DNA of 64,000 nucleotides from a bacterium (GTDB lineage Bacteria > UBA8248 > JACPRG01 > G963555815), in contig CBDHDG010000006.1 of the NCBI GenBank assembly GCA_965261595.1, positions 992,001-1,056,000 on the forward strand, written 5' to 3'. The notes beneath the pieces were generated by a model. The model was given only the letters and a program-made list of their open reading frames with translations. It did no database searches and was not told the origin of the DNA. A program made the translations under genes and the position numbers. Below are positions 16,879 to 54,377 of this stretch, piece after piece. Numbering within the stretch: the stretch's first letter is position 1; each line of letters opens with the position of its first letter.

Positions 16879-19503
16879 ATGCCCAGAAGGAGCGAGCTCA
16901 GGATCACCAAACGCACCGTGGATGCACTCACCGTCGATGCCAAGGATGGCGTCTTCTGGGACCGGGACCTGGCGGGCTTCGGGGTGCGGGTCCATGCCAC
17001 GGGTCGCAAGGTCTACGTAGTGCAGTCCCGGGGGCCGGCCGGACCGAAGCGAGTGACCCTCGGACGGCATGGGGACATGTCGACCGAGGAGGCGAGGAAG
17101 CGGGCGGCTGTGGTCATCGACCGCATCAAGCGGGGGGAGGACCCCGTGCCCGCGCCGCCCGAGCCGGAGCTCACGTTGGCCGAACTGTCCGAACGGTTCC
17201 TGCGCACCCATGTCAAAGCCGAGCACCGTTGCAACGTACCGGAGCGTGCTCGACAAGCACATTCTTCCCACCCTGGGCGCGATGTCAATCAACGAGGTAG
17301 GACGAAGAGAGATTTCCGCGCTGCATCACCGGCTTCGTGACACGCCTGCAATGGCCAACCGGACGGTCAAGGTTCTGTCGAGAATGTTCTCGTTGGCGGA
17401 AGCCTGGGAAAGACTGCCGCCCGGCCGGAATCCGTGCCGGTCGGTGCGCCGCTACAAGGAGAGGTCGTGCGAGCGGTTTCTGACGCCGGAGGAGTTCCGG
17501 CGGCTGGGCCGTGTGTTGAGGGACGCGGAAACGGACGGCTCGGTGTGGCCGCCGGTGATTGCGGCGCTCCGGCTGCTGCTGCTGACCGGATGCCGGAAGA
17601 GCGAGATCCTGACGTTGCGCTGGGACGACGTGGACCGCACGGCGGGCGAGTTGAGGCTCAGGGACGCCAAGTCGGGTCCGCGCATGGCGCCCCTAACCGG
17701 GCACGTGCTGAGAGTGCTTAACGGCATTCCCCGTATCGAAGGCACTCCCTGGGTGCTTGTCGGACAAAGGCCGGGGACCGGTCTGACGAACCTCGACCAC
17801 TACTGGCAACCCATCCGGGCGCAGGCCGGCTTGGATGACGTCCGGATTCACGACATCCGGCACAGCTATGCATCGAGGGCCCTGGCGCTGAGCCTGTCCC
17901 ATTCATAGTTGCAGGTTGAGAAAAAGAGGTGGCGGTTCACTCCTGCCGACTCGGTTAGAATCGGGTTGGCAAACATTCAAAGAGGAGGAACCGCCATGAG
18001 TGAAGCTTACCAGATCATCGAGAAGAAAGAGACCCAAAGGTTGGCCGCCTTTGTGGCGGAGCACGGGCAGGCGTTTTTTCCTCTGGTGTCGCTGGTGGAG
18101 CAGTCCCAACTGGCGGTGGAGGACCTGATGGACGTCATGGGCCGGGCGGGCCTGGAGGCCGTGCTTTTGCTGTCGGCCAAGGGCTTGACGGGCGCGCCGC
18201 ATCCAGGCAAGCGGGGTGGCGAGGTCCGCCGGCACGGCAGCCAGGGGGGCCGGGTGACCCTGAAGGGGCGCAAGCTGAAGGTGAGAAAGCCGCGGCTTCG
18301 CCGCCGGGGCCAGGGTCGGGGCGGGGAGGTGGAGGTGCCGGCGTATGCGGCCATGCAGGCCGACCCCGGGCTGGGGGAGCGGATGCTGGATTTGCTGATG
18401 CGAGGGGTCTCGACGCGGAACTACGCGGCCGTTCTTCCCGAGCTGGCCGAGACGGTGGGGGTGTCGAAGTCGGCCGTGAGCCGGGAGAGCATCGAGGCGG
18501 CCGAGGCGGAGCTGCGGCGTCTTTGTGAGCGGCGTTTTGACGACATCGACCTCCTCATCCTCTACCTGGACGGTCTGCGCTTCGGCGCGCATCACGTCAT
18601 CGTGGCCGTTGGGGTGGACACACGGGGCCAAAAGCACGTTCTGGGCCTGAGGTCGGGCGCCACCGAGAACGCCACGGTCGTGACGGCGCTTCTTGAGGAG
18701 TTGGTGGAGCGCGGCGTGCGGCCCGGGCGGCGTCGGCTTTTCGTCATCGACGGCTCGAGGGCGCTTCGTGCGGCGATTGACCGGGTGTACGGGGACGACA
18801 ATCCGGTGCAGCGGTGCCGCAACCACAAGGTGAAGAACGTGATGGACCACCTGCCCGAGGAGTTGAAGGACCCGGTGAAGGCGACGATGAAGGCGGCCTG
18901 GCGGCTGGCGCCGAAGGAGGGGATTGCCCGTCTGCGCAAGCAGGCCCGGTGGCTTCAGATCGAGCATCCGGACGCGGCCGCCAGCCTTTTGGAGGGTCTG
19001 GAGGAGATCTTCACCGTCAACCGCTTGGCTCTTCCGCCCGGCCTTCGGCGCTGCCTGGTGAGCACGAACCTGATCGAGAGTCCCTGTTCGGGGGTGCGGA
19101 TGCGCACCCGGCGCGTCGGCCGCTGGCGGGACGGGGCGATGGTGAAAAGGTGGGCCGCTTCCGCCTTCCTCGCCACCGAGAAGAACTTCCGTCGCCTGGA
19201 CGGCTACCGGGACCTGTGGATCCTGAAGGCCGTTCTGGACGAGCCCCGCTTTGACACCCGAGAGGAGGTCGCATAAGGTGAACCACACACGGACCGCCGC
19301 CTCAAACCTTCAACTGAATTCGGGACACCCTCCTGGCGCTGGGCGAGAGCCTGCCCACGATCGGCAAGCTGCTCGGTCACAGTCAAGTATCAACGACAGC
19401 ACGTTATGCGCACTTGATGCGGGATGCGGAGAAGGAAGCCGCGACCCGGGTGGGCGACAGCATCGGCGCCCACATCGGACCGCGGAGCACCGAGGCGGCA
19501 TGA
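16879..19503 (+). pseudogene. Tyrosine integrase A1 (arm-binding DUF4102 domain plus catalytic domain); frameshift near 17220 and split by IS256
   Basis: WDRDLAGFGVRV, TGCRKSE and HDIRH; after the IS the frame resumes as GESLPTIGKLLGH..TTARYAH to TGA at 19503. Confidence 0.9.
17890..19332 (+). mobile_element. IS256-family element with intact transposase (17996-19276)
   Basis: Imperfect ~31-bp terminal inverted repeats; 8-bp TSD CTGGCGCT (17882-89 and 19333-40); LDG, VIDG, QRCRNHK, STNLIES. Confidence 0.93.
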
Positions 19504-19514
19504 GGCTGGATGAC

Positions 19515-20777
19515 ATGGCGAAGCTGGAATACAAGACGCTCTCGAACCGAACGGTCGAGAAGCTGAAGGTAGAAAAAGACACGGTGTTCTGGGATCACGA
19601 GCTCACCGGCTTCGGGATGCGGGTCTATCCCGCGGGCGGCAAGGTCTATGTCGCCCAGGCCCGGGGACCGGGGGGACCGAAGCGGGTCACGGTGGGCCGG
19701 CACGGGGTGCTCGGCGCGGAGCAGGCACGTCAGCGGGCGGCCCTGATCATCGCCCGAGTCAAGGCCGGCGAGGAGCCGGTGCCCGAGCCCATGGCGGTGA
19801 AGCTGTCCGGTGGGCCGACAGTGGGCCAGCTTGCGAGGCGGTTTCTCGAAGAGCACGTGGCGGTGCGCTACAAGCCGAGCACCATGAAGTCGACTCGCAC
19901 GGTGGTGAATCGTCATATCGTGCCCGCCCTCGGTCAGCTACCGCTGGAGGCGGTCAGCCGCGCACGGGTCATGGAGCTGCATGACGAACTCTACGAGACC
20001 CCTGCGATGGCGAACATGGTGGTCCGCACCCTGTCGCTGATGTACAGGCTGGCCGAGAGCTGGGGGCTCGTTCCGGAGGGATGCAACCCCTGCCGGCTGG
20101 CGGTCAGGTTTCCGGAGCGCAAGCGGGAAAGGTTTCTGACCGATGGAGAGTTCACCCGCCTGGGAAAGGTGCTGGATGAGGTCGAGACCCGGGGCGGCGC
20201 GTCGGCATCCGCGGTGATCGCTCTCCGTCTGCTCATGCTGACCGGGTGTCGGAAGAACGAGATCCTGACCCTGCGGTGGGAGGACGTGGCGCTGGATCAG
20301 AACGAATTGAGACTGCCCGACGCCAAGACGGGCGCACGGGTGGTTCCATTGTCGCCCTCGGCGGTGAGGCTTTTTTCCGGTCTGCCGCGAGAACCGGGCA
20401 ACCCGTGTGTCATTCCCGGCCGGAAGCCGGGCACGCATATGAGCAACGTGGATCAGGCCTGGCAGGTCATCCGGGCGAGGGCTGGCCTGGAGGACGTCCG
20501 GATCCATGACCTGCGTCACAGCTTTGCGTCCAGGGCCCTGGCGCTGGGGGAGAGCTTGCCGATGATCGGAAAGCTGTTAGGCCACAGCCAGGTCGAGACC
20601 ACGGCCCGGTACGCCCATCTGGCGCGGGATTCGGTGCAGGAGGCCGCGGAGCGAATCGCCGACAGCATCGCGGCCGACATCCTGGGCGAAGGCTGGATGC
20701 CGGCTGGAGTTACCCCGGTTTGGTGGAGAGTTAAGCACTTGGGTTTTCAGGGTGTGCGTTGTTGTCTCCTTTCGTAG
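19515..20777 (+). CDS. Tyrosine integrase B1 (DUF4102 plus integrase); extreme C-terminus replaced by IS3 sequence
   Basis: TGCRKNE, AKTG, HDLRH, LGH, TTARY; full catalytic set. Confidence 0.9.
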   Translation: MAKLEYKTLSNRTVEKLKVEKDTVFWDHELTGFGMRVYPAGGKVYVAQARGPGGPKRVTVGRHGVLGAEQARQRAALIIARVKAGEEPVPEPMAVKLSGGPTVGQLARRFLEEHVAVRYKPSTMKSTRTVVNRHIVPALGQLPLEAVSRARVMELHDELYETPAMANMVVRTLSLMYRLAESWGLVPEGCNPCRLAVRFPERKRERFLTDGEFTRLGKVLDEVETRGGASASAVIALRLLMLTGCRKNEILTLRWEDVALDQNELRLPDAKTGARVVPLSPSAVRLFSGLPREPGNPCVIPGRKPGTHMSNVDQAWQVIRARAGLEDVRIHDLRHSFASRALALGESLPMIGKLLGHSQVETTARYAHLARDSVQEAAERIADSIAADILGEGWMPAGVTPVWWRVKHLGFQGVRCCLLS

Positions 20778-24290: not shown

Positions 24291-24795
24291 CTACTCGATC
24301 TCTCCAACCCTGCACCGGTCCAGATAACACGCCCAGTCGTCCATGAGCCGACGCCGCCACTCGAACAGGTCCGTACGTCGGTACGCCGCCTCGACTTGGT
24401 TGTGAACCACATGCGCTAGCGCCGCCTCCGCTACCTCGCGGGGATGGTCGGTCTCCTCGGCGGCCCAGTCCCGGAACGATGACCGGAAGCCGTGCGGCAC
24501 CGCCTTGATCCCGAGCCTCTTGAGCAGTCTGGACATCGCGGTGTTGGAGAGCGGTTTTCCGCGCATCGGGAACACGAGCGGACTGCTTCGACCCAACGCC
24601 AGCGCCTCCTCCAGAACCTCCAACGCGCGACGAGTAAGGGGGGCCCGGTGCTCGCGGTTCGGCTTCGTGCGCGGGGCCGGAATGGTCCACACCCCATGGT
24701 CCAGGTCGATCTCCGTCCACGCGGCCCCGCGGCCCTCGCCGCCGCGCGTCGCTGTCAACACTAAGAACTCGAAGGCCAGCACAGCTATCGCCGCG
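24291..24795 (-). pseudogene. C-terminal fragment of a P4-like integrase
   Basis: LTATRGGE, HGFRSSFRDWAAE, ALAH, AAYRRTDLFE.RR.LM..WA; no N-terminus. Confidence 0.85.
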
Positions 24796-24797
24796 CC

Positions 24798-25406
24798 ATG
24801 AGCGAAGAGGAGGGGTGGGCACACTACGGCTCCACCACGGCGAGGGGAACGATCCACCTGGCTGCGGCTGGGCCTTCCGGTCCATGGTTCCTCGCGCTGG
24901 ACCACGCCGGCGTCGTCGAGGATCTGACGCAGCCGCGCGCCGAGATGCCGGGCCCCGGTCTTGCGCGCTACGCCTTCGCCACGCTCACCGATCTCTACGC
25001 CGTGCTGCCCAAGGTTTATACTCTCGGGCGCACGCTTCCCGAAGGCCCGCTCGAAGATTTCCGCGACAAGACCTGCGGCCTGCCGAAGACGACGGAGGCC
25101 GAGCGCCTTGTCGTCCAACGCATCGGCCAGGACATCTTTCGTGACCGCCTGCTGACCTACTGGCAGGGCCACTGCCCTTTGACCGGAATCACGGACAGGA
25201 CCCTGCTGCGCGCCTCGCACATCATTGCGTGGGAGGACTGCCCCGACGACGCTGAACGGCTGAACATTCACAACGGCCTGCTTCTGTCAGCGCTTTGGGA
25301 CGCGGCCTTTGACAAGGGTTTGGTGACCTTCGACGACGATGGACGGCCAGAGTTCTCGCCTCTCCTGAGCGAACCGGCACGTTCCGCGCTGCGCTGGTCA
25401 AGTTAA
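24798..25406 (+). CDS. HNH endonuclease (HNH_2-like), possibly truncated
   Basis: RIGQDIFR..L..WQGHCPLTG..LLRASHIIAW..NGLLLS..D.AFDKG. Confidence 0.82.
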   Translation: MSEEEGWAHYGSTTARGTIHLAAAGPSGPWFLALDHAGVVEDLTQPRAEMPGPGLARYAFATLTDLYAVLPKVYTLGRTLPEGPLEDFRDKTCGLPKTTEAERLVVQRIGQDIFRDRLLTYWQGHCPLTGITDRTLLRASHIIAWEDCPDDAERLNIHNGLLLSALWDAAFDKGLVTFDDDGRPEFSPLLSEPARSALRWSS

Positions 25407-28536: not shown

Positions 28537-28962
28537 ATGGCATTCGGACTCAATCGCGCTGAAGTGATCGGCCGCCTCGGGGCCGACGTCACCGTCAACC
28601 ACCTCACCAGCGGCGGACGCGTCGCGAACCTGTCGATCGCCACCGACGAGGGCTACATCGACAAGCAGACCGGAGACCGGGTCGACAAGACCGAGTGGCA
28701 CCGGGTCGTGACCTTCCAGCCCGGGCTGGTGGACATGTTCGAGAAGCACGCGACGAAGGGCCGGCTGGTCTATGTGGCGGGCAAGCTGCAGACCCGTCGC
28801 TGGAAGAAGGACGAGGAGGACTCCGACCGGTTCTCCACCGAGATCCTGCTGGTTCCGGGCGGGCGCGTGCAGTTCCTCGACAAGCCCAACGGCAACGGCG
28901 CGCCGGTCGCGGAGGCGGAGACGCCGTCCGCCGAAGCGCCCATCGACGACATCCCGTTCTGA
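28537..28962 (+). CDS. ssb: Single-stranded DNA-binding protein
   Basis: LNRAEVIGRLG, TEWHRVV, G.LQTRRW, C-terminal DDIPF. Confidence 0.95.
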   Translation: MAFGLNRAEVIGRLGADVTVNHLTSGGRVANLSIATDEGYIDKQTGDRVDKTEWHRVVTFQPGLVDMFEKHATKGRLVYVAGKLQTRRWKKDEEDSDRFSTEILLVPGGRVQFLDKPNGNGAPVAEAETPSAEAPIDDIPF

Positions 28963-28990
28963 GCGCGCATTCCGTTTCCTCTCTCTACCT

Positions 28991-29023
28991 GGGCCGGCGC
29001 TTCGCGCGTCGGCCCTTTTTCTT
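28991..29023 (+). terminator. Rho-independent terminator after ssb
   Basis: GGGCCGGCGC-loop-GCGTCGGCCC followed by TTTTTCTT. Confidence 0.65.
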
Positions 29024-29156
29024 GCTGCCCGTTCCGAGACAGCGCCCGTTCGGGCCTCGCGCCAGCGCTACGCGCGGCGCTTCGTCCTCCGGCGCCGGCC
29101 GGAGGCGGAGGCCGGCCGGTATCGGGCGTTCCCCGTTCATCCAGAGGAGGCCCGTC

Positions 29157-30135
29157 ATGCCGCCCCCATCGTCCCGTTCCGTATCTCCCGCCGCCGACAT
29201 CGCCGCCGCGCTCGGCGCGTGCGCCGAGGCCGTCTGCCGGCGTTACCTGCCCCAGGGCAAAAAGCAGGGCCGGTACTGGGTCGCCGGCGATCTCGAAGGC
29301 GCTCGCGGCCGCTCGCTCTTCGTCCGCCTGCACGGTCCCGGCGTCCCCGGGAAGTGGACCGACGCGGCCACCGGAGAGCACGGGGACCTGCTCGATCTCG
29401 TCCGGCATCGCTCGGGCGCGCCGACGCTTCGCGCGGCGCTCGCCGAGGCCCGCGCCTTCCTCGCCCTGCCGGCTCCGCCGGCGCCGGGCGAGGGCTACGA
29501 CGCAACAGAAGCGGCCCGCCGTCTCTGGCGGCCTTGCCGCGCCATCGACGGCACCCATGCCGAAGCCTACCTCCACGCCCGCGGACTCGCGCGCTGCCGG
29601 TTCCCGGCATTGCGCTTCCATCCCGAGCTTCGCTATCGCGAAGGCTCTTCCCAGCGCCGTTTTCCGGCGCTGGTCGCCGCCGTGACCGGCGACGACGGCG
29701 CCATCCACGGCGTGCAGCGCACCTGGCTCGATCCGCGCTTGCCCGCCAAGGCGGACGTCGCGGCCCCGCGCAAGGCGCTCGGCCGCATCCACGGACGCGC
29801 CGTGTGCTTCGGCAAGCCCGCCGACGGTGCTGTCGATCGTCACCGCGGCGCCCGGGGTCATTTCGGCGGCCGCGCTCTCGGCCGGAAGCCTCGGCGCCTT
29901 CGCTCCACCTGGCGGGCTCAAACAGCTCGTCATCGCCCGCGACAACGATTCCGAGGGGGAGCGGGCCGCCCAACGCCTCGCCCGGCGCTGCGCGCGGGCG
30001 GGCGTCGCCGCCCACGTCATCGTCTCCGAATACGGCGACTTCAACGACGATCTGGTCACTCTCGGACCCCGAGCCCTGGCCCTTCGGCTCGCCGCCCTGT
30101 TCCCCGCGCCTCAGCGGGTCGGAGAGAGGGAGTGA
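29157..30135 (+). pseudogene. Plasmid/ICE-type toprim primase (DUF7146-like), frameshift/deletion near 29825
   Basis: GKWTDAATGEHGDLLDL, AEAYL.ARG, GVQRTWL; IARDND toprim motif in a second frame; the catalytic EG.E segment is missing. Confidence 0.8.
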
Positions 30136-30659
30136 AGAGCGGGGGAGGGGTGAACGGCTCCAAAGGAGAAGAGAGCATGGCGCACATCGTCAATCTCAGG
30201 CATGCGCCAGCCCTGCGGGCGGCGCTTCACGGCAAGCCGCTGGCCTTCTGATGCGCGCCGCTGCCCTGCCATGGGCAGGTCCTCGCCCGCGCCGCGGCAT
30301 GGGCGGCCTCCGTCCTGGCGGAACGGAGGGGAGAGTGAAGCGGGAGAGGGGCGAACGCCGCGAGGAGGGAGAGAGAGGGCCCCGGGCACCGGCAACACGG
30401 AAGGAGAACCGAAATGCAATCCGTCACTTTCAAGTGCATCGCCCCGTACGAGTCGAGGGTCTACCACGATGGCAATCTCGCCTGCGAGGTTGCGGAGCCA
30501 CTCGTCGATACGCGTCCGTTGCGGTGACGGGCCATGCCGTCTTCGGGCGATCCCTTCGGGCCGGGATCCCCGCTGCAATCTCCGCTCCGCTCCGATTTTC
30601 GCTTCCATCCCTATCGCCTCCGCTCGCTGGCGCTCGCTGCGCGCTCCTGTACCTCTTAT

Positions 30660-30845
30660 AAGTGACTCTGCGCTTCAATAGCACGGAATTGGGCAGGCCG
30701 CCGGGAGCAACCCTTGCGCGCTCAGTGCCATCAGCACCTCAAGCGGACAGGTGCCCCGGCGGTCCTGCCACGACGGATGCCCCGTGAGGAGTTAGCGCCT
30801 TGAGCGCCAAGTACAGGAGTCGGCAGGCGTCGTGGCAGGCCCAGC
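30660..30845 (+). ncRNA. Predicted IS110 bridge RNA (ends approximate)
   Basis: Two stem-enclosed internal loops whose segments match the target (TGCGCGCTC, CAAGCGGA) and the donor (GTGAGGAGT, GTACAGGA). Confidence 0.8.
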
Positions 30846-30876
30846 CACCATCGCACAGATTAGGGAGGGAGACGAA

Positions 30877-32247
30877 TTGGCAGATCTCAAGTGGTTTGTC
30901 GGAATCGATTGGGGGTCCCGAATCCACCAGGCCTGCATCCTCGACGCGAACGGCGACGTTCGAGCCGAGCATGCGTTCGCCCACGGCGGCGCCGGTTTCG
31001 CCGCGTTGACGGACTGGATTCTGTCCGGCACCGAGGAGGCGCCGGCGGACCAGGTCGGCGTGGCCATCGAGACGCCTCGCGGACCCGTGGTCGAAACGCT
31101 CCTCGGATGCGGCTTCGCCGTTCACTCCATCAACCCCAGGCAACTGGACCGCTTCCGCGACCGTTACTCGCACGCCGGGGCGAAGGACGATCGTCGCGAC
31201 GCCCTGGTGCTGGCGTCGGCGCTACGCACCGACCCGCACCGGCTGCTGCGGGTCAAACCAACGGCTCCCGCAATCGTCGAGCTGCGCGAGTGGTCCCGCA
31301 TCGTCGAGAGCCTGACGCGCGAGCGGGTGCGCCTGTCCAATCGCATGTGCGACCAGCTCTGGCGTTACTACCCCGAGTTCATCAATGTCGTGGAGGACTT
31401 CAATGTTCACTGGGCACTGGCCCTTTGGAACCGCGTGCCGACGCCCGCGGCCGTGCGCGGCGTCCGGCTTTCCACGCTCGAGAAGCTTCTGAAAAAGCAC
31501 CGCGTTCGACGTATCACCGCCGAGGAGCTCCGCGACCAGCTTACCGCGCGCGCCATCGACATCGACCCCAGCGCAATACGCGCCGCCGAGACCCACGCCC
31601 GCATCATTGCGAAGCAGCTTGCGCTCGTGAACCAGCAGTTGACAGAGGCCAACTCACGTCTCGAGGCGCTCGTCACCCAGCTCGCCGAAGCCGCCCCCGA
31701 TCCGGACGAAAGTTCCGAACCGGGGCAACACAAAGAACAGCGTGACGTGGCTATCCTGCGTTCTCTGCCCGGAGTCGGCACGGTTGTCCTCGCCACGCTG
31801 TTCGCAGAGGCCGATGACGCTCTGCAGCGCCGAGACTACCACGCGCTGCGCTGCTTGTGCGGCGTGGCGCCCGTCACCAAGCGCTCCGGCAAGAGCATGC
31901 GCGTCTCCCTCAGACGCGCCGCGCATCGTCGCCTGCGCAATGCCACCTACCATTGGGCACGCGTGGCCATGCAGAAGGACCCCGTCTGCAAAGCCAAGTA
32001 CCAGGTGCTTCGCTCCCGAGGCCACGGCCACGCCCGTTCGCTGCGCTCCGTCGCAGACCGCCTCCTCAATGTCGCCTGCGCCATGCTTCGCGACCAGACA
32101 CTGTTCGACCCGCAGCACGCCAGCGCTGCAGCAGGTTCACACCGCGAAGCGGTCAATGGAATCTCAATTGAATCATCTGTTGTTGGTCCTGTGGAGCTTG
32201 TGGGCGAGAGGGGCGAGAGTGTGGGCAACGCGGTGGGCAACGCGTAA
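30877..32247 (+). CDS. IS110-family DEDD recombinase/transposase
   Basis: VGIDWG, IE, KDDRRDA (DEDD); SLPGVG; GVAPVTKRSGKS (catalytic Ser); TTG start after AGGGAGG. Confidence 0.93.
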   Translation: MADLKWFVGIDWGSRIHQACILDANGDVRAEHAFAHGGAGFAALTDWILSGTEEAPADQVGVAIETPRGPVVETLLGCGFAVHSINPRQLDRFRDRYSHAGAKDDRRDALVLASALRTDPHRLLRVKPTAPAIVELREWSRIVESLTRERVRLSNRMCDQLWRYYPEFINVVEDFNVHWALALWNRVPTPAAVRGVRLSTLEKLLKKHRVRRITAEELRDQLTARAIDIDPSAIRAAETHARIIAKQLALVNQQLTEANSRLEALVTQLAEAAPDPDESSEPGQHKEQRDVAILRSLPGVGTVVLATLFAEADDALQRRDYHALRCLCGVAPVTKRSGKSMRVSLRRAAHRRLRNATYHWARVAMQKDPVCKAKYQVLRSRGHGHARSLRSVADRLLNVACAMLRDQTLFDPQHASAAAGSHREAVNGISIESSVVGPVELVGERGESVGNAVGNA

Positions 32248-32752
32248 GCGTTGTCCACGGACTTGTCCATACGGCCCGCAGGGCTCGCGCCGGTCCTCAG
32301 GACTCGTCCACAAATCCATAGGACTACCCCCTTGCAAGTTGGTGAGGAGTCCGCTTGCCGGGCCGGCGCCCGAGACCCGCGTCTCAATCCCGGAACCGCA
32401 CAGGGCGTCCGGGACAGTGGCTAACAATATCCCTCTCGACGTGATGGCCCATTGTCCCACACGTGCTCGCTGCGCCAACCCCGCCTCCGGCGGGGTCCTC
32501 CTCTTCGTTCCGGCCCTGGCTCGCAAGGCTACGGCGCTGAAGCGCCTAGGCGCGGCAAGAAACGCGACCGAGGCTCCGCGCTCCCTGCGGTCGCTTGTGC
32601 GCCCGCGCCACTCGCGCCCCTCGCCGCGCCAGGCCTTGCGGCCACGGTGGCTTTGCTGCGCGCGCGTGGGCCACTCAACCATCACGTTCGGAGACTCTCT
32701 CCGCACAACGAACCGTAACGGTTCTCAACCCTCTACCCGGAAGGAGAGCATC

Positions 32753-33676
32753 ATGCACGATATCGACAACATCTCAGAACAGAACCAGTCCGTCACCGCC
32801 ACCGTCTGCGAGCAGGCGGCTCTCTTCGGAGCAACCCCAGAGCGCGACGAATTCGACAACCGGGAGGTCTGGGATCCGGAGAACGCCCTCTCCGCCGTCA
32901 CGGAAGCCTTCCGCATCATGGCACACGGCGTCGCCCCCGACGGAACGCAACTCGCCGACGAGCGCGAGAGCCTGCTCTGGGGATTCGTCAACATGCTCGA
33001 CGCCCAGACGCAACGCCTCGACCGCGCGGCCGACAGGCTCCTCCCCGACATGCGCGACCTCCAGCGCGAGCAGGACGGCTCGGAGATCCGGTCCCGAGAA
33101 CTCGAACTCGTCACCGACCGAACCAAGAACCTCACGGACCGGCGGGACGCCTTCGAGCAACTCCGCGATACAGCGGCCGAGGCCTACCGGGTCGAGACCG
33201 GAGACCTCTGGCGGCCCCGGCGCGGGTCCCACACCTCCCAGACCGGCAAGCTCACTTCGGCCATGATCGATGCCCGCGACTTCCAGCGTGCCCGCAGGGA
33301 CCGCGAGAACAAGGCCCTCCTGCCCCAGGGAACGCTCGTCGCGGTGGCAGGCGGCAAGCACGCCGGCGACGCAGGCGCCATCATCCGCACCCTCGAGAAG
33401 CTTAAGGCCAAGTACGACGACGTGGTCCTGGTCCACGGCGGTGGTCCGGGCGTCGAGAAGATCGCGGCCAAGTGGGCGGACCGCAACGGTGTCCACCAGA
33501 TCGTCTGCAAGCCCAACTGGGACGCGCACGGACGCGCGGCGCCCTTCCGGCGCAATGACGAACTGCTCGATCTCCTCCCCAAGGGCGTCATCGCGTTCCC
33601 GGGTTCGGGCATCACCGACAATCTGGTCGACAAGGCGCGCAAGCTCGGTATCCCGGTCCAGTGCGTCGCCGCCTGA
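32753..33676 (+). CDS. DUF2493 (YspA/SLOG-like) domain protein
   Basis: AAGGAG RBS; LVHGG..GVEKIAAKWA..PNW..HGRAAPFRRND..FPGSGITDNL. Confidence 0.82.
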   Translation: MHDIDNISEQNQSVTATVCEQAALFGATPERDEFDNREVWDPENALSAVTEAFRIMAHGVAPDGTQLADERESLLWGFVNMLDAQTQRLDRAADRLLPDMRDLQREQDGSEIRSRELELVTDRTKNLTDRRDAFEQLRDTAAEAYRVETGDLWRPRRGSHTSQTGKLTSAMIDARDFQRARRDRENKALLPQGTLVAVAGGKHAGDAGAIIRTLEKLKAKYDDVVLVHGGGPGVEKIAAKWADRNGVHQIVCKPNWDAHGRAAPFRRNDELLDLLPKGVIAFPGSGITDNLVDKARKLGIPVQCVAA

Positions 33677-34358
33677 GCCCAACGACCTCGCGGGTCGCGT
33701 CGCCACCCGGCGGCGCGGCCCGTTCCTCTTCCGCGTTGCCCACTGCCGCACCGCCCGCCGCACTTCGCACCGCACCGGTGCGGACCCCGCTGCTCGCACC
33801 GCCCCGCACTGCCCCATGCACCATGCTCCGCACGGCCGCCCGCTCAATCGCCGCGGCGGCTCCCCCGCGCGTCACGCGCCCGCGGAGATCTTCCCTTCGT
33901 TCCTTTTACTGATTTTGGTCTGTCGGACGCCGGTCGGCGCTTTTACTCTCACACCTGACGCAGCAGGCTGCATGTGTACTCCATGCGCGCGCTTGTCCTA
34001 CATTCTTGTCCGCAATCAACGACCTGCGGTATCTCTGTGATGCCGGATAAAGTCCTACCAATCTGGTAGCTCGTAGGTATGCGGCGCTATCTCACTGATA
34101 TTCTTGCATTTATTCAAGTGCGCATCGCGCCCGGAGTTCGAGTGAGATCTCAAGCGGCATACGGCCGATACCAGACTGGTCGCGCGCGGATCCGCGCTGC
34201 GCTATGATGACTACCAATTTGGTTGTTCGGCCTCCGGCATCATTCGGAAGTTTTCTCCGGTCCGGGACGAGGGTGTGCGGTGTCCAGGACAAGGGCTAAA
34301 TCGGTCGTTTCCTGGACCGAGATGGACTGAAGTCTTCACAAAAGGATCGGCAAAGCTG

Positions 34359-35422: not shown

Positions 35423-36826
35423 TCCCCCGCTCTAGGGTTTTGTTGGACACTCGATTGATCCATGATTCATGGAGAAAGGGGTGTCGCGATGAACGAACAA
35501 AAGCAAGAGGGGGCTTTGGCGGAGGGCGCCCGTAGGGCGAACGGAGCCAAGGCCCCAGGGCATCGCAGTGAGCGGGGTCGGTTCTCCTGCCAGCGCAAGC
35601 GGGAGGCGGTCCTGCGTCTTTTGCGGGGCGAGAGCCTGGAGACGCTCTGCCGCGAGTTGGGCACGACAGCGGCTCGGCTTTCCGCCTGGCGCGAGGCGTT
35701 CCTTCGCGGGGGCGAGGCGGCGCTCAAAGCCCGCCCGGCGGATGAGCGGGACGAGGAGAACGCCCGGCTCAAGGCCAAGGTGGGCGAACTCACGATGGAG
35801 GGCGAGGTCCTGCGGGAGAAGATCGACCGCCTGGAGGCCGGCCGCCCTTTAGCCGGCAGGAGGTGGAGGCGATGAGTCAGGCCCGCTTCACCTCCACGGG
35901 CAGAGCCTACGGCCTGAAGCGGGTGTGCGCCCTTTGGGGCTTGGCGCGCTCCACGGTCTACGCGCAACGGCGGCGAGAGGCGGTCCCCGTTCATGAACGC
36001 CCCACGCCCAATAAGCGCGGCCCTGTGGGCCCGTGCACCGATGCGGAACTCCTCGGCCACATCCGGCAGGTCCTGGAGGACTCTCCCTTCCATGGCGAGG
36101 GCTACCGCAAGGTGTGGGCGAGGCTGCGCTTCGCGGGCATCCGCACCAGCAAGGAGCGGGTGCGTCGCCTGATGCGGGAGGCGGGGCTTCAGGCCCCCCA
36201 CCGGGTGGGCAAACCCCGAGGTCCCAAGGCCCACAACGGGACCATCCGCACCGAGCGGCCCGACCGAATGTGGGGCACGCACATGACGACGACGGTGACC
36301 ACCGAGGAGGGGATGGCCTCGGTGTTCGTGGCGGTGGATCACTGCTCGGTGGACTGCGTGGGGATCCATGCGGCCAAGAGCGGCAACCGCTTCGAGGCCC
36401 TGGAGCCGATCCGGCAGGGGGTCGCCGAGCGCTTCGCCGGCTTGGAGGCGGACGTCGCCGAGGGGCTTAAAGTTCGTCACGACCACGGCCCCGCCTATCT
36501 GTCCGATGACTTTCAGCGGGAGATCGCCTACCTGGGCATGACCAGTTCGCCCAGCTTCGTGCGGGCGCCCGAGGGAAATGGCTACTGTGAGTGGTTCATC
36601 CGCATCTTGAAGGAGAATCTCCTGTGGGTGCGCTCTTTCGCCACCGTAGAGGAACTGCGGTGGGCGCTGCTTGAGTTCAAGAACCTGTACAACCATCATT
36701 GGATTCTCGAGGGCTACGGCTACCGAACGCCGGCCCAGGCAAGGCAGGAAAAACTCGCTCAAGTTGCGGAGGCCGCATGAGGTCGAATACCCTCACCCGA
36801 GTGTCCAATAACCCAGGGGCGGTCCA
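35423..36826 (+). mobile_element. IS3-family element copy 1 (1404 bp), TSD AATG; first DDE Asp mutated to His
   Basis: Ends TCCCCCGCTCTAGGG..CCCAGGGGCGGTCCA; orfA about 35489-35875, orfB to 36780; WGTHMT instead of WGTDMT. Confidence 0.92.
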
Positions 36827-39118: not shown

Positions 39119-40522
39119 TGGACCGCCCCTGGGTTATTGGACACTCGGGTGAGGGTATTCGACCTCATGCGGCCTCCGCAACTTGAGCGAGTTTTTCCTG
39201 CCTTGCCTGGGCCGGCGTTCGGTAGCCGTAGCCCTCGAGAATCCAATGATGGTTGTACAGGTTCTTGAACTCAAGCAGCGCCCACCGCAGTTCCTCTACG
39301 GTGGCGAAAGAGCGCACCCACAGGAGATTCTCCTTCAAGATGCGGATAAACCACTCACAGTAGCCATTTCCCTCGGGCGCCCGCACGAAGCTGGGCGAAC
39401 TGGTCATGCCCAGGTAGGCGATCTCCCGCTGAAAGTCATCGGACAGATAGGCGGGGCCGTGGTCGTGACGAACTTTAAGCCCCTCGGCGACGTCCGCCTC
39501 CAAGCCGGCGAAGCGCTCGGCGACCCCCTGCCGGATCGGCTCCAGGGCCTCGAAGCGGTTGCCGCTCTTGGCCGCATGGATCCCCACGCAGTCCACCGAG
39601 CAGTGATCCACCGCCACGAACACCGAGGCCACCCCCTCCTCGGTGGTCACCGTCGTCGTCATGTCCGTGCCCCACATTCGGTCGGGCCGCTCGGTGCGGA
39701 TGGTCCCGTTGTGGGCCTTGGGACCTCGGGGTTTGCCCACCCGGTGGGGGGCCTGAAGCCCCGCCTCCCGCATCAGGCGACGCATCCGCTCCTTGCTGGT
39801 GCGGATGCCCGCGAAGCGCAGCCTCGCCCACACCTTGCGGTAGCCCTCGCCATGGAAGGGAGAGTCCTCCAGGACCTGCCGGATGTGGCCGAGGAGTTCC
39901 GCATCGGTGCACGGGCCCACAGGGCCGCGCTTATTGGGCGTGGGGCGTTCATGAACGGGGACCGCCTCTCGCCGCCGTTGCGCGTAGACCGTGGAGCGCG
40001 CCAAGCCCCAAAGGGCGCACACCCGCTTCAGGCCGTAGGCTCTGCCCGTGGAGGTGAAGCGGGCCTGACTCATCGCCTCCACCTCCTGCCGGCTAAAGGG
40101 CGGCCGGCCTCCAGGCGGTCGATCTTCTCCCGCAGGACCTCGCCCTCCATCGTGAGTTCGCCCACCTTGGCCTTGAGCCGGGCGTTCTCCTCGTCCCGCT
40201 CATCCGCCGGGCGGGCTTTGAGCGCCGCCTCGCCCCCGCGAAGGAACGCCTCGCGCCAGGCGGAAAGCCGAGCCGCTGTCGTGCCCAACTCGCGGCAGAG
40301 CGTCTCCAGGCTCTCGCCCCGCAAAAGACGCAGGACCGCCTCCCGCTTGCGCTGGCAGGAGAACCGACCCCGCTCACTGCGATGCCCTGGGGCCTTGGCT
40401 CCGTTCGCCCTACGGGCGCCCTCCGCCAAAGCCCCCTCTTGCTTTTGTTCGTTCATCGCGACACCCCTTTCTCCATGAATCATGGATCAATCGAGTGTCC
40501 AACAAAACCCTAGAGCGGGGGA
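39119..40522 (-). mobile_element. IS3-family element copy 2, TSD GATC
   Basis: Near-identical to copy 1; GATC at 39115-18 and 40523-26. Confidence 0.93.
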
Positions 40523-40986: not shown

Positions 40987-42390
40987 TGGAGCGCCCCTGG
41001 GTTATTGGACACTCGGGTGAGGGTATTCGACCTCATGCGGCCTCCGCAACTTGAGCGAGTTTTTCCTGCCTTGCCTGGGCCGGCGTTCGGTAGCCGTAGC
41101 CCTCGAGAATCCAATGATGGTTATACAGGTTCTTGAACTCAAGCAGCGCCCACCGCAGTTCCTCTACGGTGGCGAAAGAGCGCACCCACAGGAGATTCTC
41201 CTTCAAGGTGCGGATGAACCACTCACAGTAGCCATTTCCCTCGGGCGCCCGCACGAAGCTGGGCGAACTGGTCATGCCCAGGTAGGCGATCTCCCGCTGA
41301 AAGTCATCGGACAGATAGGCGGGGCCGTGGTCGTGACGAACTTTAAGCCCCTCGGCGACGTCCGCCTCCAAGCCGGCGAAGCGCTCGGCGACCCCCTGCC
41401 GGATCGGCTCCAGGGCCTCGAAGCGGTTGCCGCTCTTGGCCGCATGGATCCCCACGCAGTCCACCGAGCAGTGATCCACCGCCACGAACACCGAGGCCAT
41501 CCCCTCCTCGGTGGTCACCGTCGTCGTCATGTCCGTGCCCCACATTCGGTCGGGCCGCTCGGTGCGGATGGTCCCGTTGTGGGCCTTGGGACCTCGGGGT
41601 TTGCCCACCCGGTGGGGGGCCTGAAGCCCCGCCTCCCGCATCAGGCGACGCACCCGCTCCTTGCTGGTGCGGATGCCCGCGAAGCGCAGCCTCGCCCACA
41701 CCTTGCGGTAGCCCTCGCCATGGAAGGGAGAGTCCTCCAGGACCTGCCGGATGTGGCCGAGGAGTTCCGCATCGGTGCACGGGCCCACAGGGCCGCGCTT
41801 ATTGGGCGTGGGGCGTTCATGAACGGGGACCGCCTCTCGCCGCCGTTGCGCGTAGACCGTGGAGCGCGCCAAGCCCCAAAGGGCGCACACCCGCTTCAGG
41901 CCGTAGGCTCTGCCCGTGGAGGTGAAGCGGGCCTGACTCATCGCCTCCACCTCCTGCCGGCTAAAGGGCGGCCGGCCTCCAGGCGGTCGATCTTCTCCCG
42001 CAGGACCTCGCCCTCCATCGTGAGTTCGCCCACCTTGGCCTTGAGCCGGGCGTTCTCCTCGTCCCGCTCATCCGCCGGGCGGGCTTTGAGCGCCGCCTCG
42101 CCCCCGCGAAGGAACGCCTCGCGCCAGGCGGAAAGCCGAGCCGCTGTCGTGCCCAACTCGCGGCAGAGCGTCTCCAGGCTCTCGCCCCGCAAAAGACGCA
42201 GGACCACCTCCCGCTTGCGCTGGCAGGAGAACCGACCCCGCTCACTGCGATGCCCTGGGGCCTTGGCTCCGTTCGCCCTACGGGCGCCCTCCGCCAAAGC
42301 CCCCTCTTGCTTTTGTTCGTTCATCGCGACACCCCTTTCTCCATGAATCATGGATCAATCGAGTGTCCAACAAAACCCTAGAGCGGGGGA
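40987..42390 (-). mobile_element. IS3-family element copy 3, no TSD
   Basis: Near-identical copy; the flanks differ. Confidence 0.93.
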
Positions 42391-43382
42391 ACGGCAAGGT
42401 CCACAGCGCTGATGACTGGCGGTCTGTATTGGAGCCGGTGGTAGCTCGCTACCGGGATGCGAAGGTCTGTCGGTTTTTTCGAGGCGACGCGGCATTTGCC
42501 AAGCCGGAGGTGTACCGATACCTTGAGGCGGAGGGCTACTCCTATGCGATTCGGCTTCCGGCCAACGCCATCTTGTACAGGGACATCGAATACCTTCTGA
42601 CCCGGCCGGTTGGCCGACCGCCCAAAAGGCCCATTATCTTCTACCACAGCGTCTCCTATCAGGCGGCTAGTTGGGAGAAGCCTCGCCGGGTGGTGGTGGC
42701 GGTCGAGTGGCACCAGGGCGAGTTGTTTCCAAGAGTCAGCTTCATCGTGACCAACCTGCACTGGCGGGAAGAGAACGTCGTGAGGTTCTACAACCAGCGT
42801 GGGACGGCGGAGCAGTGGATCAAGGAGGGCAAGTACGCCCTGAACTGGACGCGCCTGTCCTGCCACGGCTTTGAAGAGAGCCAGGTTCGCTTGCAACTAT
42901 TTGCCTTGGCGTACAACCTGGCAAACTTCCTGCGGCGGCTGGCGTTGCCCAGAGCGGTGAAGCACTGGTCGCTGACGACGTTACGCGAGAAGCTGATTAA
43001 GATTGGGGCCAAGGTGGTCACCCACGCCCAGTACACCACCTTCCAGATGGCCGAGGTGGCCGTGCCGCGTCAACTGTTCAGGGCAATCCTTGAACGAATT
43101 CGACGGTTGTGGTTACCGCCTCCCGTACCAGATACCGGATGACGGAGCAGATGGCCCGGAAGCTTAGTGACATGGTGGAGACGGGGGATCAGTCTGTGCC
43201 GAACTCCCCTGAGTGTGCCGGTAGAGCTGGGTTTTCAAGGGATTGCGGCTTTAGGACGGCCGTTGCCCCTCGATTGAGCAGAGGGTTCTGCAAAGAGACC
43301 CTGAATCTGTAGTAAAATGGGGTACTTTGATGACACAGGAGGACCGCAGGATGGCTAAGAGTGGTCATCTGGGAAATCCCGG
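42391..43382 (+). pseudogene. 3' half of an IS1380-family element (CDS to 43142), truncated by IS3 copy 3
   Basis: RGDAAFA, YNQRGTAEQWIKEGK, LIKIGAKVV; terminal CATCTGGGAAATCCCGG. Confidence 0.88.
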
Positions 43383-52972: not shown

Positions 52973-54377
52973 TCCCCCGCTCTAGGGTTTTGTTGGACAC
53001 TCGATTGATCCATGATTCATGGAGAAAGGGGTGTCGCGATGAACGAACAAAAGCAAGAGGGGGCTTTGGCGGAGGGCGCCCGTAGGGCGAACGGAGCCAA
53101 GGCCCCAGGGCATCGCAGTGAGCGGGGTCGGTTCTCCTGCCAGCGCAAGCGGGAGGCGGTCCTGCGTCTTTTGCGGGGCGAGAGCCTGGAGACGCTCTGC
53201 CGCGAGTTGGGCACGACAGCGGCTCGGCTTTCCGCCTGGCGCGAGGCGTTCCTTCGCGGGGGCGAGGCGGCGCTCAAAGCCCGTCCGGCGGATGAGCGGG
53301 CCGAGGAGAACGCCCGGCTCAAGGCCAAGGTGGGCGAACTCACGATGGAGGGCGAGGTCCTGCGGGAGAAGATCGACCGCCTGGAGGCCGGCCGCCCTTT
53401 AGCCGGCAGGAGGTGGAGGCGATGAGTCAGGCCCGCTTCACCTCCACGGGCAGAGCCTACGGCCTGAAGCGGGTGTGCGCCCTTTGGGGCTTGGCGCGCT
53501 CCACGGTCTACGCGCAACGGCGGCGAGAGGCGGTCCCCGTTCATGAACGCCCCACGCCCAATAAGCGCGGCCCTGTGGGCCCGTGCACCGATGCGGAACT
53601 CCTCGGCCACATCCGGCAGGTCCTGGAGGACTCTCCCTTCCATGGCGAGGGCTACCGCAAGGTGTGGGCGAGGCTGCGCTTCGCGGGCATCCGCACCAGC
53701 AAGGAGCGGGTGCGTCGCCTGATGCGGGAGGCGGGGCTTCAGGCCCCCCACCGGGTGGGCAAACCCCGAGGTCCCAAGGCCCACAACGGGACCATCCGCA
53801 CCGAGCGGCCCGACCGAATGTGGGGCACGGACATGACGACGACGGTGACCACCGAGGAGGGGATGGCCTCGGTGTTCGTGGCGGTGGATCACTGCTCGGT
53901 GGACTGCGTGGGGATCCATGCGGCCAAGAGCGGCAACCGCTTCGAGGCCCTGGAGCCGATCCGGCAGGGGGTCGCCGAGCGCTTCGCCGGCTTGGAGGCG
54001 GACGTCGCCGAGGGGCTTAAAGTTCGTCACGACCACGGCCCCGCCTATCTGTCCGATGACTTTCAGCGGGAGATCGCCTACCTGGGCATGACCAGTTCGC
54101 CCAGCTTCGTGCGGGCGCCCGAGGGAAATGGCTACTGTGAGTGGTTCATCCGCACCTTGAAGGAGAATCTCCTGTGGGTGCGCTCTTTCGCCACCGTAGA
54201 GGAACTGCGGTGGGCGCTGCTTGAGTTCAAGAACCTGTACAACCATCATTGGATTCTCGAGGGCTACGGCTACCGAACGCCGGCCCAGGCAAGGCAGGAA
54301 AAACTCGCTCAAGTTGCGGAGGCCGCATGAGGTCGAATACCCTCACCCGAGTGTCCAATAACCCAGGGGGTGGTCCA
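52973..54377 (+). mobile_element. IS3-family element copy 4, TSD ATGG
   Basis: Near-identical copy; ATGG at 52969-72 and 54378-81. Confidence 0.93.

Follow-up and report, generated by a model that had tools for sequence, protein, structure and literature searches.

Does the IS110-family gene at 30877-32247 of a 64-kb stretch of bacterial DNA belong to a complete mobile element, and does that element carry the RNA that would direct its own insertion? The stretch, called the window here, comprises the 64,000 nucleotides (nt) at positions 992,001 to 1,056,000 of contig CBDHDG010000006.1 (assembly GCA_965261595.1), read on the forward strand; all coordinates are those of the window, and features lie on the plus strand unless stated otherwise. 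An earlier reading of the letters (the original prediction) had proposed a bridge RNA of the IS621 type in the left end of an IS110-group element. We conclude, with a probability of about 0.88, that 30648-32350 together with one CC dinucleotide makes up one IS110-group insertion sequence of 1,705 bp whose own bridge RNA matches both its ends and its insertion site. The proposal of an IS621-type bridge RNA is borne out by the guides, by the RNA structure and by the relative lengths of the two ends.

Guides and junctions of the element

Direct reading places the trinucleotide TCC at 30645-30647 and again at 32350-32352. On the layout that we consider most likely, the core is the CC within each copy (30646-30647 on the left, 32351-32352 on the right). 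The left flank then ends in the left target (LT, positions 1-7), GCGCGCT at 30639-30645, and the right flank opens with the right target (RT, positions 10-14), GCTTG at 32353-32357. Between the cores, the left end (LE, 30648-30876) starts with the right donor (RD), TGTAC at 30648-30652, as part of a TGTAC(C) start that is conserved in relatives, and the right end (RE, 32248-32350), delimited by direct reading and by relatives, terminates in the left donor (LD), GAGGAGT at 32344-32350. The LE of 229 nt is longer than the RE of 103 nt, as in the IS110 group.

Four short strings within the LE repeat these junctions. TGCGCGCTC at 30715-30723 is identical to 30638-30646, that is, to the left flank plus the first C, and GTGAGGAGT at 30784-30792 is identical to 32342-32350, the last 9 nt of the element. 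CAAGCGGA at 30740-30747 is the reverse complement of 32350-32357, and GTACAGGA at 30811-30818 that of 30645-30652; adding the next base, C 30748 and G 30819 respectively, extends these two to 9 nt (against 32349-32357 and 30644-30652). All four guides thus match a junction exactly over 9 nt, and they stand in the canonical order of left target guide (LTG), right target guide (RTG), left donor guide (LDG) and right donor guide (RDG). When 30653-30876 was shuffled 20,000 times with its dinucleotide composition preserved, the four 9-mers turned up in 35, 33, 21 and 32 shuffles, and no shuffle contained two or more of them. The strings named in the original prediction are all present, as found by direct reading and by script, and they follow the order and the strand rule of IS621-type RNAs, in which left guides reproduce the top strand and right guides its reverse complement (Durrant 2024, PMC11208160).

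Base by base, the LTG consists of a T that matches T 30638 just upstream of the LT, of GCGCGCT (30716-30722, identical to LT1-7) and of a C for core position 8; the A that follows at 30724 is a mismatch to core position 9. The RTG proper (30740-30746) reads CAAGC, which would pair with the RT, followed by GG, which would pair with the CC core. The base after the LDG is a T that could wobble with core position 8, and the next base, A, is a mismatch. The RDG proper (30811-30817) is built like the RTG, with GTACA for the RD and GG for the core.

Bridge RNA structure and covariation among relatives

We collected relatives by a profile scan of genome contigs, which gave 494 pattern matches, 487 of them confirmed; the best 80 were kept and yielded 79 loci. 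The recombinases at these best 79 loci are 50-65% identical to that of the window and come mostly from Vicinamibacterales, Alphaproteobacteria, Longimicrobiales and 'Multivorans' metagenome-assembled genomes. Some of the genomes carry 6, 7 or 12 loci on a single contig, and such multiplicity within single genomes speaks for mobility of the family. Counting the window, a bridge-RNA region can be recognised in 74 of 80 sources and both junctions in 64; the six without such a region are a 5'-truncated locus (L027), four loci without an RDG anchor (L033, L042, L073, L077) and one without an LDG anchor (L072).

In the single-sequence fold of the RNA region (-99 kcal/mol, z -2.1; equalled in 5 of 200 shuffles), small hairpins split the target guides (GTGC/GCAC, 30725-30728/30734-30737) and the donor guides (GCGC/GCGC, 30795-30798/30804-30807), and a stem closes each loop. 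The same hairpins and closing stems appear in the family consensus structure, so these elements of the original prediction are confirmed by both the minimum-free-energy fold and the consensus. In an alignment of 40 distinct RNA sequences with a mean column identity of 74%, RNAalifold gave 29 consensus pairs, which make up the two closing stems and the two hairpins, and 18 of the 29 show compensatory changes. The original prediction had suggested a covariance model from homologues as a check. Such a model, built from 39 relatives with the window excluded, matches 30685-30840 on the plus strand over its full length (131.6 bits, E 2e-22), its sole match in the 64 kb. We take this interval as the bridge RNA body, with a target-binding loop module at about 30693-30769 and a donor-binding loop module at about 30768-30836.

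The guides change together with the sites that they match. When LT1-7+C and the reverse complement of CC+RT1-5 were slid along each target loop (55 distinct loop/target combinations, 2,812 non-cognate pairs), cognate pairs reached mean scores of 7.13 of 8 and 6.44 of 7, compared with 5.32 and 4.41 for non-cognate pairs. Across 30 distinct target loops the observed score was 405 of 450, against a mean of 303 after permutation (standard deviation 8.1, maximum 344), and none of 20,000 permutations reached the observed value. No foreign target scored better than the cognate one for 19 of the 30 loops, and the remainder mostly involve near-identical target types or poorly matched left halves. The window loop reaches the full 15 of 15 with its own site, compared with 9-11 for all the others. 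Element ends behave alike: they are conserved in the family (RE ...GGTGGGGAGT, LE TGTACC...), and differing ends go with differing guides. The LDG and the LD change together from GTGAGGAGT in the window to GTGGAGAGT in L056, GTGGGAAGT in L069 and GTGAACAGT in L034, and in L078 and L079 ATACA in the RNA accompanies TGTAT in the LE; in this last pair one LDG difference is uncompensated. The covariation between guides and insertion sites on which the original prediction had staked its case is thus present in the family.

Two groups of relatives deserve separate mention. On contig OZ220750.1, seven copies (L045-L050 and L071) share one bridge RNA and an RT, TCACC, that is matched in 5 of 5 positions. 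On the left, except in L046 and L071, the agreement between target and LTG is confined to the final few Cs, a pattern that recalls the 'half-match' insertions described for IS621. The flanks of L007, L008 and L015-L017 hold a repeated motif, GGGGTCCCTTTTCA...TGGCCAC, with unoccupied copies tens of bases from occupied ones, which suggests a multi-copy target resembling repetitive extragenic palindromic (REP) sequences.

An Rfam 15 scan of 30300-32700 returned two sub-threshold chance matches, snoU82P and mir-138. The snoU82P match, to a C/D-box small nucleolar RNA, lies on the minus strand at 30673-30737 opposite the target loop (24.3 bits against a gathering score of 42, E 0.002) and is probably due to chance. 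Nop5/Nop56 structures are among the weaker fold matches of the recombinase model, and a preprint reportedly ties IS110 transposases to Nop5 and C/D ribonucleoproteins.

Recombinase and candidate junction promoter

The coding sequence at 30877-32247, identified by Pfam, NCBIfam and fold, begins with TTG behind a GGGAGG and specifies 456 amino acids (aa). An alternative start, GTG 30832, would give the 471 aa of an identical database protein; relatives start at the position of TTG 30877. The product is an IS110-family RNA-guided transposase, with matches to PF01548 (2.6e-33, full profile 1-155), PF02371 (2.6e-18) and NF033542 (169.3 bits against a cut-off of 140, profile positions 1-342 of 343), a family that NCBI already names 'IS110 family RNA-guided transposase'. 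At least 7,806 of 8,000 candidates from a word-indexed search scored as homologues, the closest non-identical ones at 85% identity.

The DEDD residues and the catalytic serine claimed for this protein are present: D11, E65, D105, D108, S337 and G338 (numbered from TTG 30877) are invariant in a 32-sequence alignment. Searched against the Protein Data Bank (PDB) with phmmer, the protein matched only ISCro4 (1.8e-8) and IS621 (1.6e-7), and the alignment pairs D11, D105, D108 and S337-G338 with D11, D102, D105 and S241-G242 of IS621. At the catalytic glutamate this alignment is shifted by 3 residues, and we placed E65 by the shared IE motif and by its invariance in the family. An AlphaFold2 model (mean predicted local distance difference test score, pLDDT, 77.7; predicted template modelling score, pTM, 0.66) found IS621 or ISCro4 chains as all ten of its best PDB fold matches (E 2e-11 to 2e-10, template modelling (TM) scores 0.59-0.65 by target length). 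The model has long helices at 131-164 and 231-271 with extra helices in between, a serine loop (333-349) of low confidence and a C-terminal tail (420-456) that is predicted to be disordered. By sequence, the open reading frame (ORF) and its catalytic residues look intact.

The C terminus has two peculiarities. Most homologues span about 91% of the query and lack its tail of about 40 aa, and the last residues are encoded by a perfect 12-nt tandem duplication at 32221-32244 (GTGGGCAACGCG twice).

When the ends are joined in silico, a TTG-type hexamer in the RE (mostly TTGACA or TTGCAA) comes to lie 17 nt from TACCnT in the LE, and this combination, which sits at -19 and +4 relative to the core, scores best in 28 of the 37 distinct junctions. 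Its counterparts in the window are a candidate -35 box, TTGCAA at 32332-32337, and, 17 nt away once joined, a candidate -10 box, TACCTC at 30650-30655. The top-scoring pair of the window is another, TGGTGA (32340-32345) and TATAAG (30657-30662) with a 16-nt spacer (8 of 12). The position-conserved pair is a candidate circle-junction promoter by consensus match only, and it parallels those of IS621 and ISPpu10.

By analogy with IS621, the element would leave as a circle, its RE linked to its LE at CC, and the RE-LE junction would assemble the -35/-10 pair that drives the bridge RNA and probably the recombinase too. A bridge RNA of about 155 nt would present two internal loops, the target loop with LTG and RTG and the donor loop with LDG and RDG; a tetramer of the DEDD/Ser recombinase would hold both loops and cleave next to the CC cores via a phosphoserine intermediate, after which the strands would be exchanged and the circle inserted at GCGCGCT-CC-GCTTG.

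Handshake guides

In IS621 the two bases after the RTG and the two after the RDG pair, once strands have been exchanged, with positions 6-7 of the other DNA (Hiraizumi 2024, PMC11208158). The window has candidates for both: AC at 30747-30748 in the target loop, complementary to donor positions 6-7 (GT, 32349-32350) and part of a GGAC that is conserved in relatives, and AG at 30818-30819 in the donor loop, complementary to target positions 6-7 (CT, 30644-30645). Among 30 distinct combinations in the family, the first handshake base of the donor loop can always form a Watson-Crick pair with LT7 (30 of 30; G:C 24, T:A 4, C:G 1, A:T 1), and the second base fits LT6 in just 6.

The 8-nt right-hand strings of the original prediction are therefore best read as a 5-nt guide followed by two core-pairing bases and a single handshake base. 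Its statement that the right-hand guides are longer than those of native IS621 holds; the length of 6 nt does not, as they comprise 5 nt, to which the CC core and the handshake bases are added. Longer right guides have already been noted for some orthologues (Durrant 2024, PMC11208160).

The single A:T pair at LT7 among the 30 combinations is that of the window, the only one in which LT7 is T. Target and donor here both have T at position 7, which allows the first handshake base in either loop to pair with that loop's own DNA as well. This raises the alternative that the element is structurally intact and effectively immobile or very sluggish, held in a 'locked' handshake state and burdened with a weak junction -10 box, TACCTC, which lacks the final T. 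In IS621, a G166A or pre-HSB RNA allows cleavage, with recombination strongly reduced and no productive exchange (PMC11208158), and the window holds a single copy of the element in 64 kb. Against this, the insertion at the present site did occur, neither the ORF nor any guide shows decay, position 6, with C in the target and G in the donor, still tells the two DNAs apart, both second handshake bases fit the non-cognate partner, and the IS621 result may not transfer to a protein of 20% identity. We consider such sluggishness unlikely, though it is the strongest of the competing explanations; the shared T bears hypothetically on efficiency and is not evidence of inactivity. It does offer a natural test of the 'lock' idea, for which later studies of excision and half-match recombination by IS621 form part of the background.

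Core dinucleotide

The original prediction had placed the core at TC (30645-30646 and 32350-32351), with 6-nt right-hand guides, in what is otherwise the same element. The window by itself cannot place the core, because TCC is common to both junctions and TC, CC and TCC all yield the same target and donor sequences; the third common base is there because target and donor are both T at position 7. The LTG, moreover, ends in TC before its mismatch, and one relative (L044) has TC after its LD.

The family decides between these placements. Of 59 right junctions for which the LDG 9-mer alone served as the locator, 58 read AGT-CC, the exception being L044 with AGT-TC. In L031, L052 and L056, among others, the bases around CC differ between left and right junctions, and CC is all that they have in common; in L013 and L030 the base before CC is G or A instead of T. 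For the L007 type, CC and TC cores would leave different empty sites: GGGGTCCCTTTTC, unoccupied and with CC adjoining TGTAC, occurs 8 times in the flanks of L007, L008, L015, L016 and L017, and GGGGTCCTTTTC, the site expected with a TC core, occurs 0 times. In addition, the RDG base after GG tracks LT7 through all four bases in 30 of 30 combinations, as a handshake base does and a core base would not. In 35 of 36 cases the LTGs of the relatives carry C at core position 8, and at position 9 they have C in 23, T in 9, G in 2 and A in 2. Together, the family evidence makes CC the most likely core and gives the layout of IS621, GCGCGCT-CC-TGTAC on the left and GAGGAGT-CC-GCTTG on the right; a TC core we regard as very improbable.

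Strength of the assignment

That the guide-like matches are coincidental or ordinary terminal repeats, with the protein alone choosing the target, has next to no probability left: the modest single-sequence fold score and the lack of an Rfam match speak for it, and the absence of even two of the four 9-mers together in any shuffle, the family-wide covariation of guides with flanks and element ends, and the covariance-model match all speak against it.

Several points nevertheless weigh against our reading of the locus. Some concern the core and the guides. The finding of CC in all 64 sources with both junctions is partly by construction, since the junction finder required CC, and L044 has CC at its left junction and GGGGAGT-TC-CCCG at its right, which could reflect a mutation or a mismatched-core insertion. 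The LTG and LDG are both unpaired with the second core base, the target and donor share T at position 7, and 13 of 49 distinct loop/LT pairs, set aside in the guide-base counts above, have more than one mismatch in LT1-7. Other points concern the RNA and its expression. No Rfam 15 family matches 30300-32700, the position-conserved -10 candidate is poor, no sigma-70-like site was found in the integrated 30500-32500, and the covariance model found no second copy in the window. As to the protein, structure comparison gives only 19-20% identity to IS621 and ISCro4, and in the model the helical region between the two conserved domains is about twice as long; owing to this low identity and the longer helical region, the mechanism is transferred by analogy, and it is in this way that we infer transcription, circle formation, catalysis and reprogrammability for this copy.

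Comparison with known bridge recombinases

The closest parallel is IS621 of Escherichia coli (synaptic complex 8wt6-8wt9). Like the window element, it combines a RuvC-like DEDD domain with a Tnp domain and a Ser-Gly catalytic loop; its LE encodes a bridge RNA in which the target loop precedes the donor loop, with a hairpin dividing each loop and a stem closing it; its left guides read the bottom strand and its right guides the top strand of a 7 + 2 + 5 target and donor layout; and 2-nt handshake guides follow its RTG and RDG. Its -35 box in the RE and -10 box in the LE are joined only in the circle, as proposed for the window. IS621 differs in its CT core, where the window has CC: the T at position 9 of IS621, which the main chain of G63 reads, is described as 'almost invariant' in this element and related orthologues (PMC11208158), and this near-invariant T of an IS621-like CT core is absent from the window and its relatives. 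The window element differs further in the motif after the catalytic glutamate (ETPRGP), in a protein of 456 aa as against 326 aa, with extra helices at about 166-223 inside the coiled-coil region and a disordered C-terminal tail, in its LTG, unlike that of IS621 unpaired at core position 9, and in its GC-rich sequence with an RNA module of about 155 nt. Its RTG and RDG are contiguous (5 + 2 nt), in contrast to the 2 + 2 RTG and split RDG of native IS621 (PMC11208158).

IS622/ISCro4 of Citrobacter rodentium (9t56), a close relative of IS621, shares the fold of the window protein (TM 0.59-0.62 by target length), is its best PDB sequence match and follows the same loop and handshake logic (Perry 2025 preprint); it differs in its CT core and has 20% identity to the window protein. 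Some site selection by IS622 used GT, and CT was used otherwise. ISPpu10 of Pseudomonas putida, which targets REP sequences, likewise has an LE bridge RNA and a hybrid promoter, P_junc; it inserts in a repeated intergenic sequence, and some of the window element's relatives likewise occupy repeated motifs. It differs in its CT core and in a described requirement for a target stem-loop (10.64898/2026.03.19.712850). The IS1111 group belongs to the same protein family and shares the RNA-guided principle; it carries its RNA downstream of the gene, an RE longer than the LE and long subterminal inverted repeats (PMC11208160), unlike the window element, whose RNA lies upstream of the coding sequence and whose LE is the longer end.

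The Durrant 2024 analysis was filtered for 'CT core guides' (PMC11208160), which implies that other cores exist. A narrow search for the phrase 'CC core' found no use of it among the papers listed, which leaves its absence from the literature unproven; the preprint 10.1101/2025.10.25.684509 does not use the word 'core'; and in the portion of the Durrant 2024 supplements that could be searched, the LDG and RDG strings of the family matched only unrelated oligonucleotides and alignments.

The element is of a known kind and would move by ordinary RNA-guided transposition; its CC core, a variant common to its clade, is of moderate interest. Tentatively, and at somewhat less than even odds, the window element and its relatives may form an experimentally uncharacterised clade of bridge recombinases with a CC core, C tolerated or preferred in place of the T of the CT-core elements IS621 and ISPpu10, a differing loop (ETPRGP) behind the catalytic glutamate, contiguous 5-nt right guides and a fully covarying handshake. 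If so, the clade would widen the sequence space for bridge editing and provide a natural test of how the core is read, and with C accepted at position 9 such an enzyme could act at sites closed to the CT-core IS621, IS622 and ISPpu10. The single window copy displays every guide and both handshake dinucleotides, which makes it a clean natural example, and the family offers dozens of natural retargeting events that obey the published rules, raising confidence in these rules far from E. coli.

Genomic context

The element lies in a spacer, about 510 nt after the stop of a toprim gene and about 435 nt before the start of a DUF2493 gene. Upstream, DUF7146 (4.4e-33) and Toprim_3 (9.4e-17) fall in two different frames; downstream is a DUF2493/SLOG protein (8.2e-21). 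Toprim and DUF2493 genes are adjacent in many alphaproteobacterial plasmids, for example pCMU01, where the spacer is 334 nt. Searches for an empty site in plasmids gave no megablast match with 29000-34000, and a distant blastn search with 29300-33700 matched 346 records, 0 of which cover at least 80% of the query; it did show toprim-DUF2493 synteny, with 65-72% identity, and it also picked up IS110 genes of 66-71%. The plasmid spacers cannot serve as an empty site because they are too diverged. As for further target sites, the window holds only 2 matches to the reconstructed 15-nt site at 3 mismatches, fewer than the 5.2 expected on average by chance.

We considered disruption of a gene by the insertion and rejected it. 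Frames do cross the in-silico empty site, but the codon-phase GC signal of the flanks is weak, and the DUF2493 gene has its own ribosome-binding site and an ATG at 32789, encoding 295 aa, a size close to the 309 aa of the pCMU01 homologue. The toprim gene itself looks frameshifted. DUF7146 occupies aa 270-371 of an ORF at 28695-30251 (about nt 29502-29807) and Toprim_3 a different frame, in an ORF at 29827-30135; the pCMU01 homologue is one 352-aa coding sequence, and the window gene (29500-30135) may be a pseudogene or contain a sequencing error.

The surroundings are an island resembling a plasmid or an integrative and conjugative element and rich in mobile elements, and in the annotation of the window the IS110-group element helps to mark it. 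An IS3-type element is present in four copies (35467-36780, 39165-40478, 41033-42346 and 53017-54330), with recurring pairs of ORFs of 305 and 431 aa on opposite strands; the two 305-aa ORFs that were scanned both contain HTH_21 and rve integrase-core domains, and the second and third copies have the same orientation and lie about 0.55 kb apart. A Mutator-family transposase is encoded at 17909-19276, and two tyrosine integrases at 19251-20777, with an Arm DNA-binding domain, and at 24291-25271 on the minus strand. An N-terminally truncated DDE_Tnp_1_4 transposase, covering profile positions 189-433 of 435, occupies 42363-43142.

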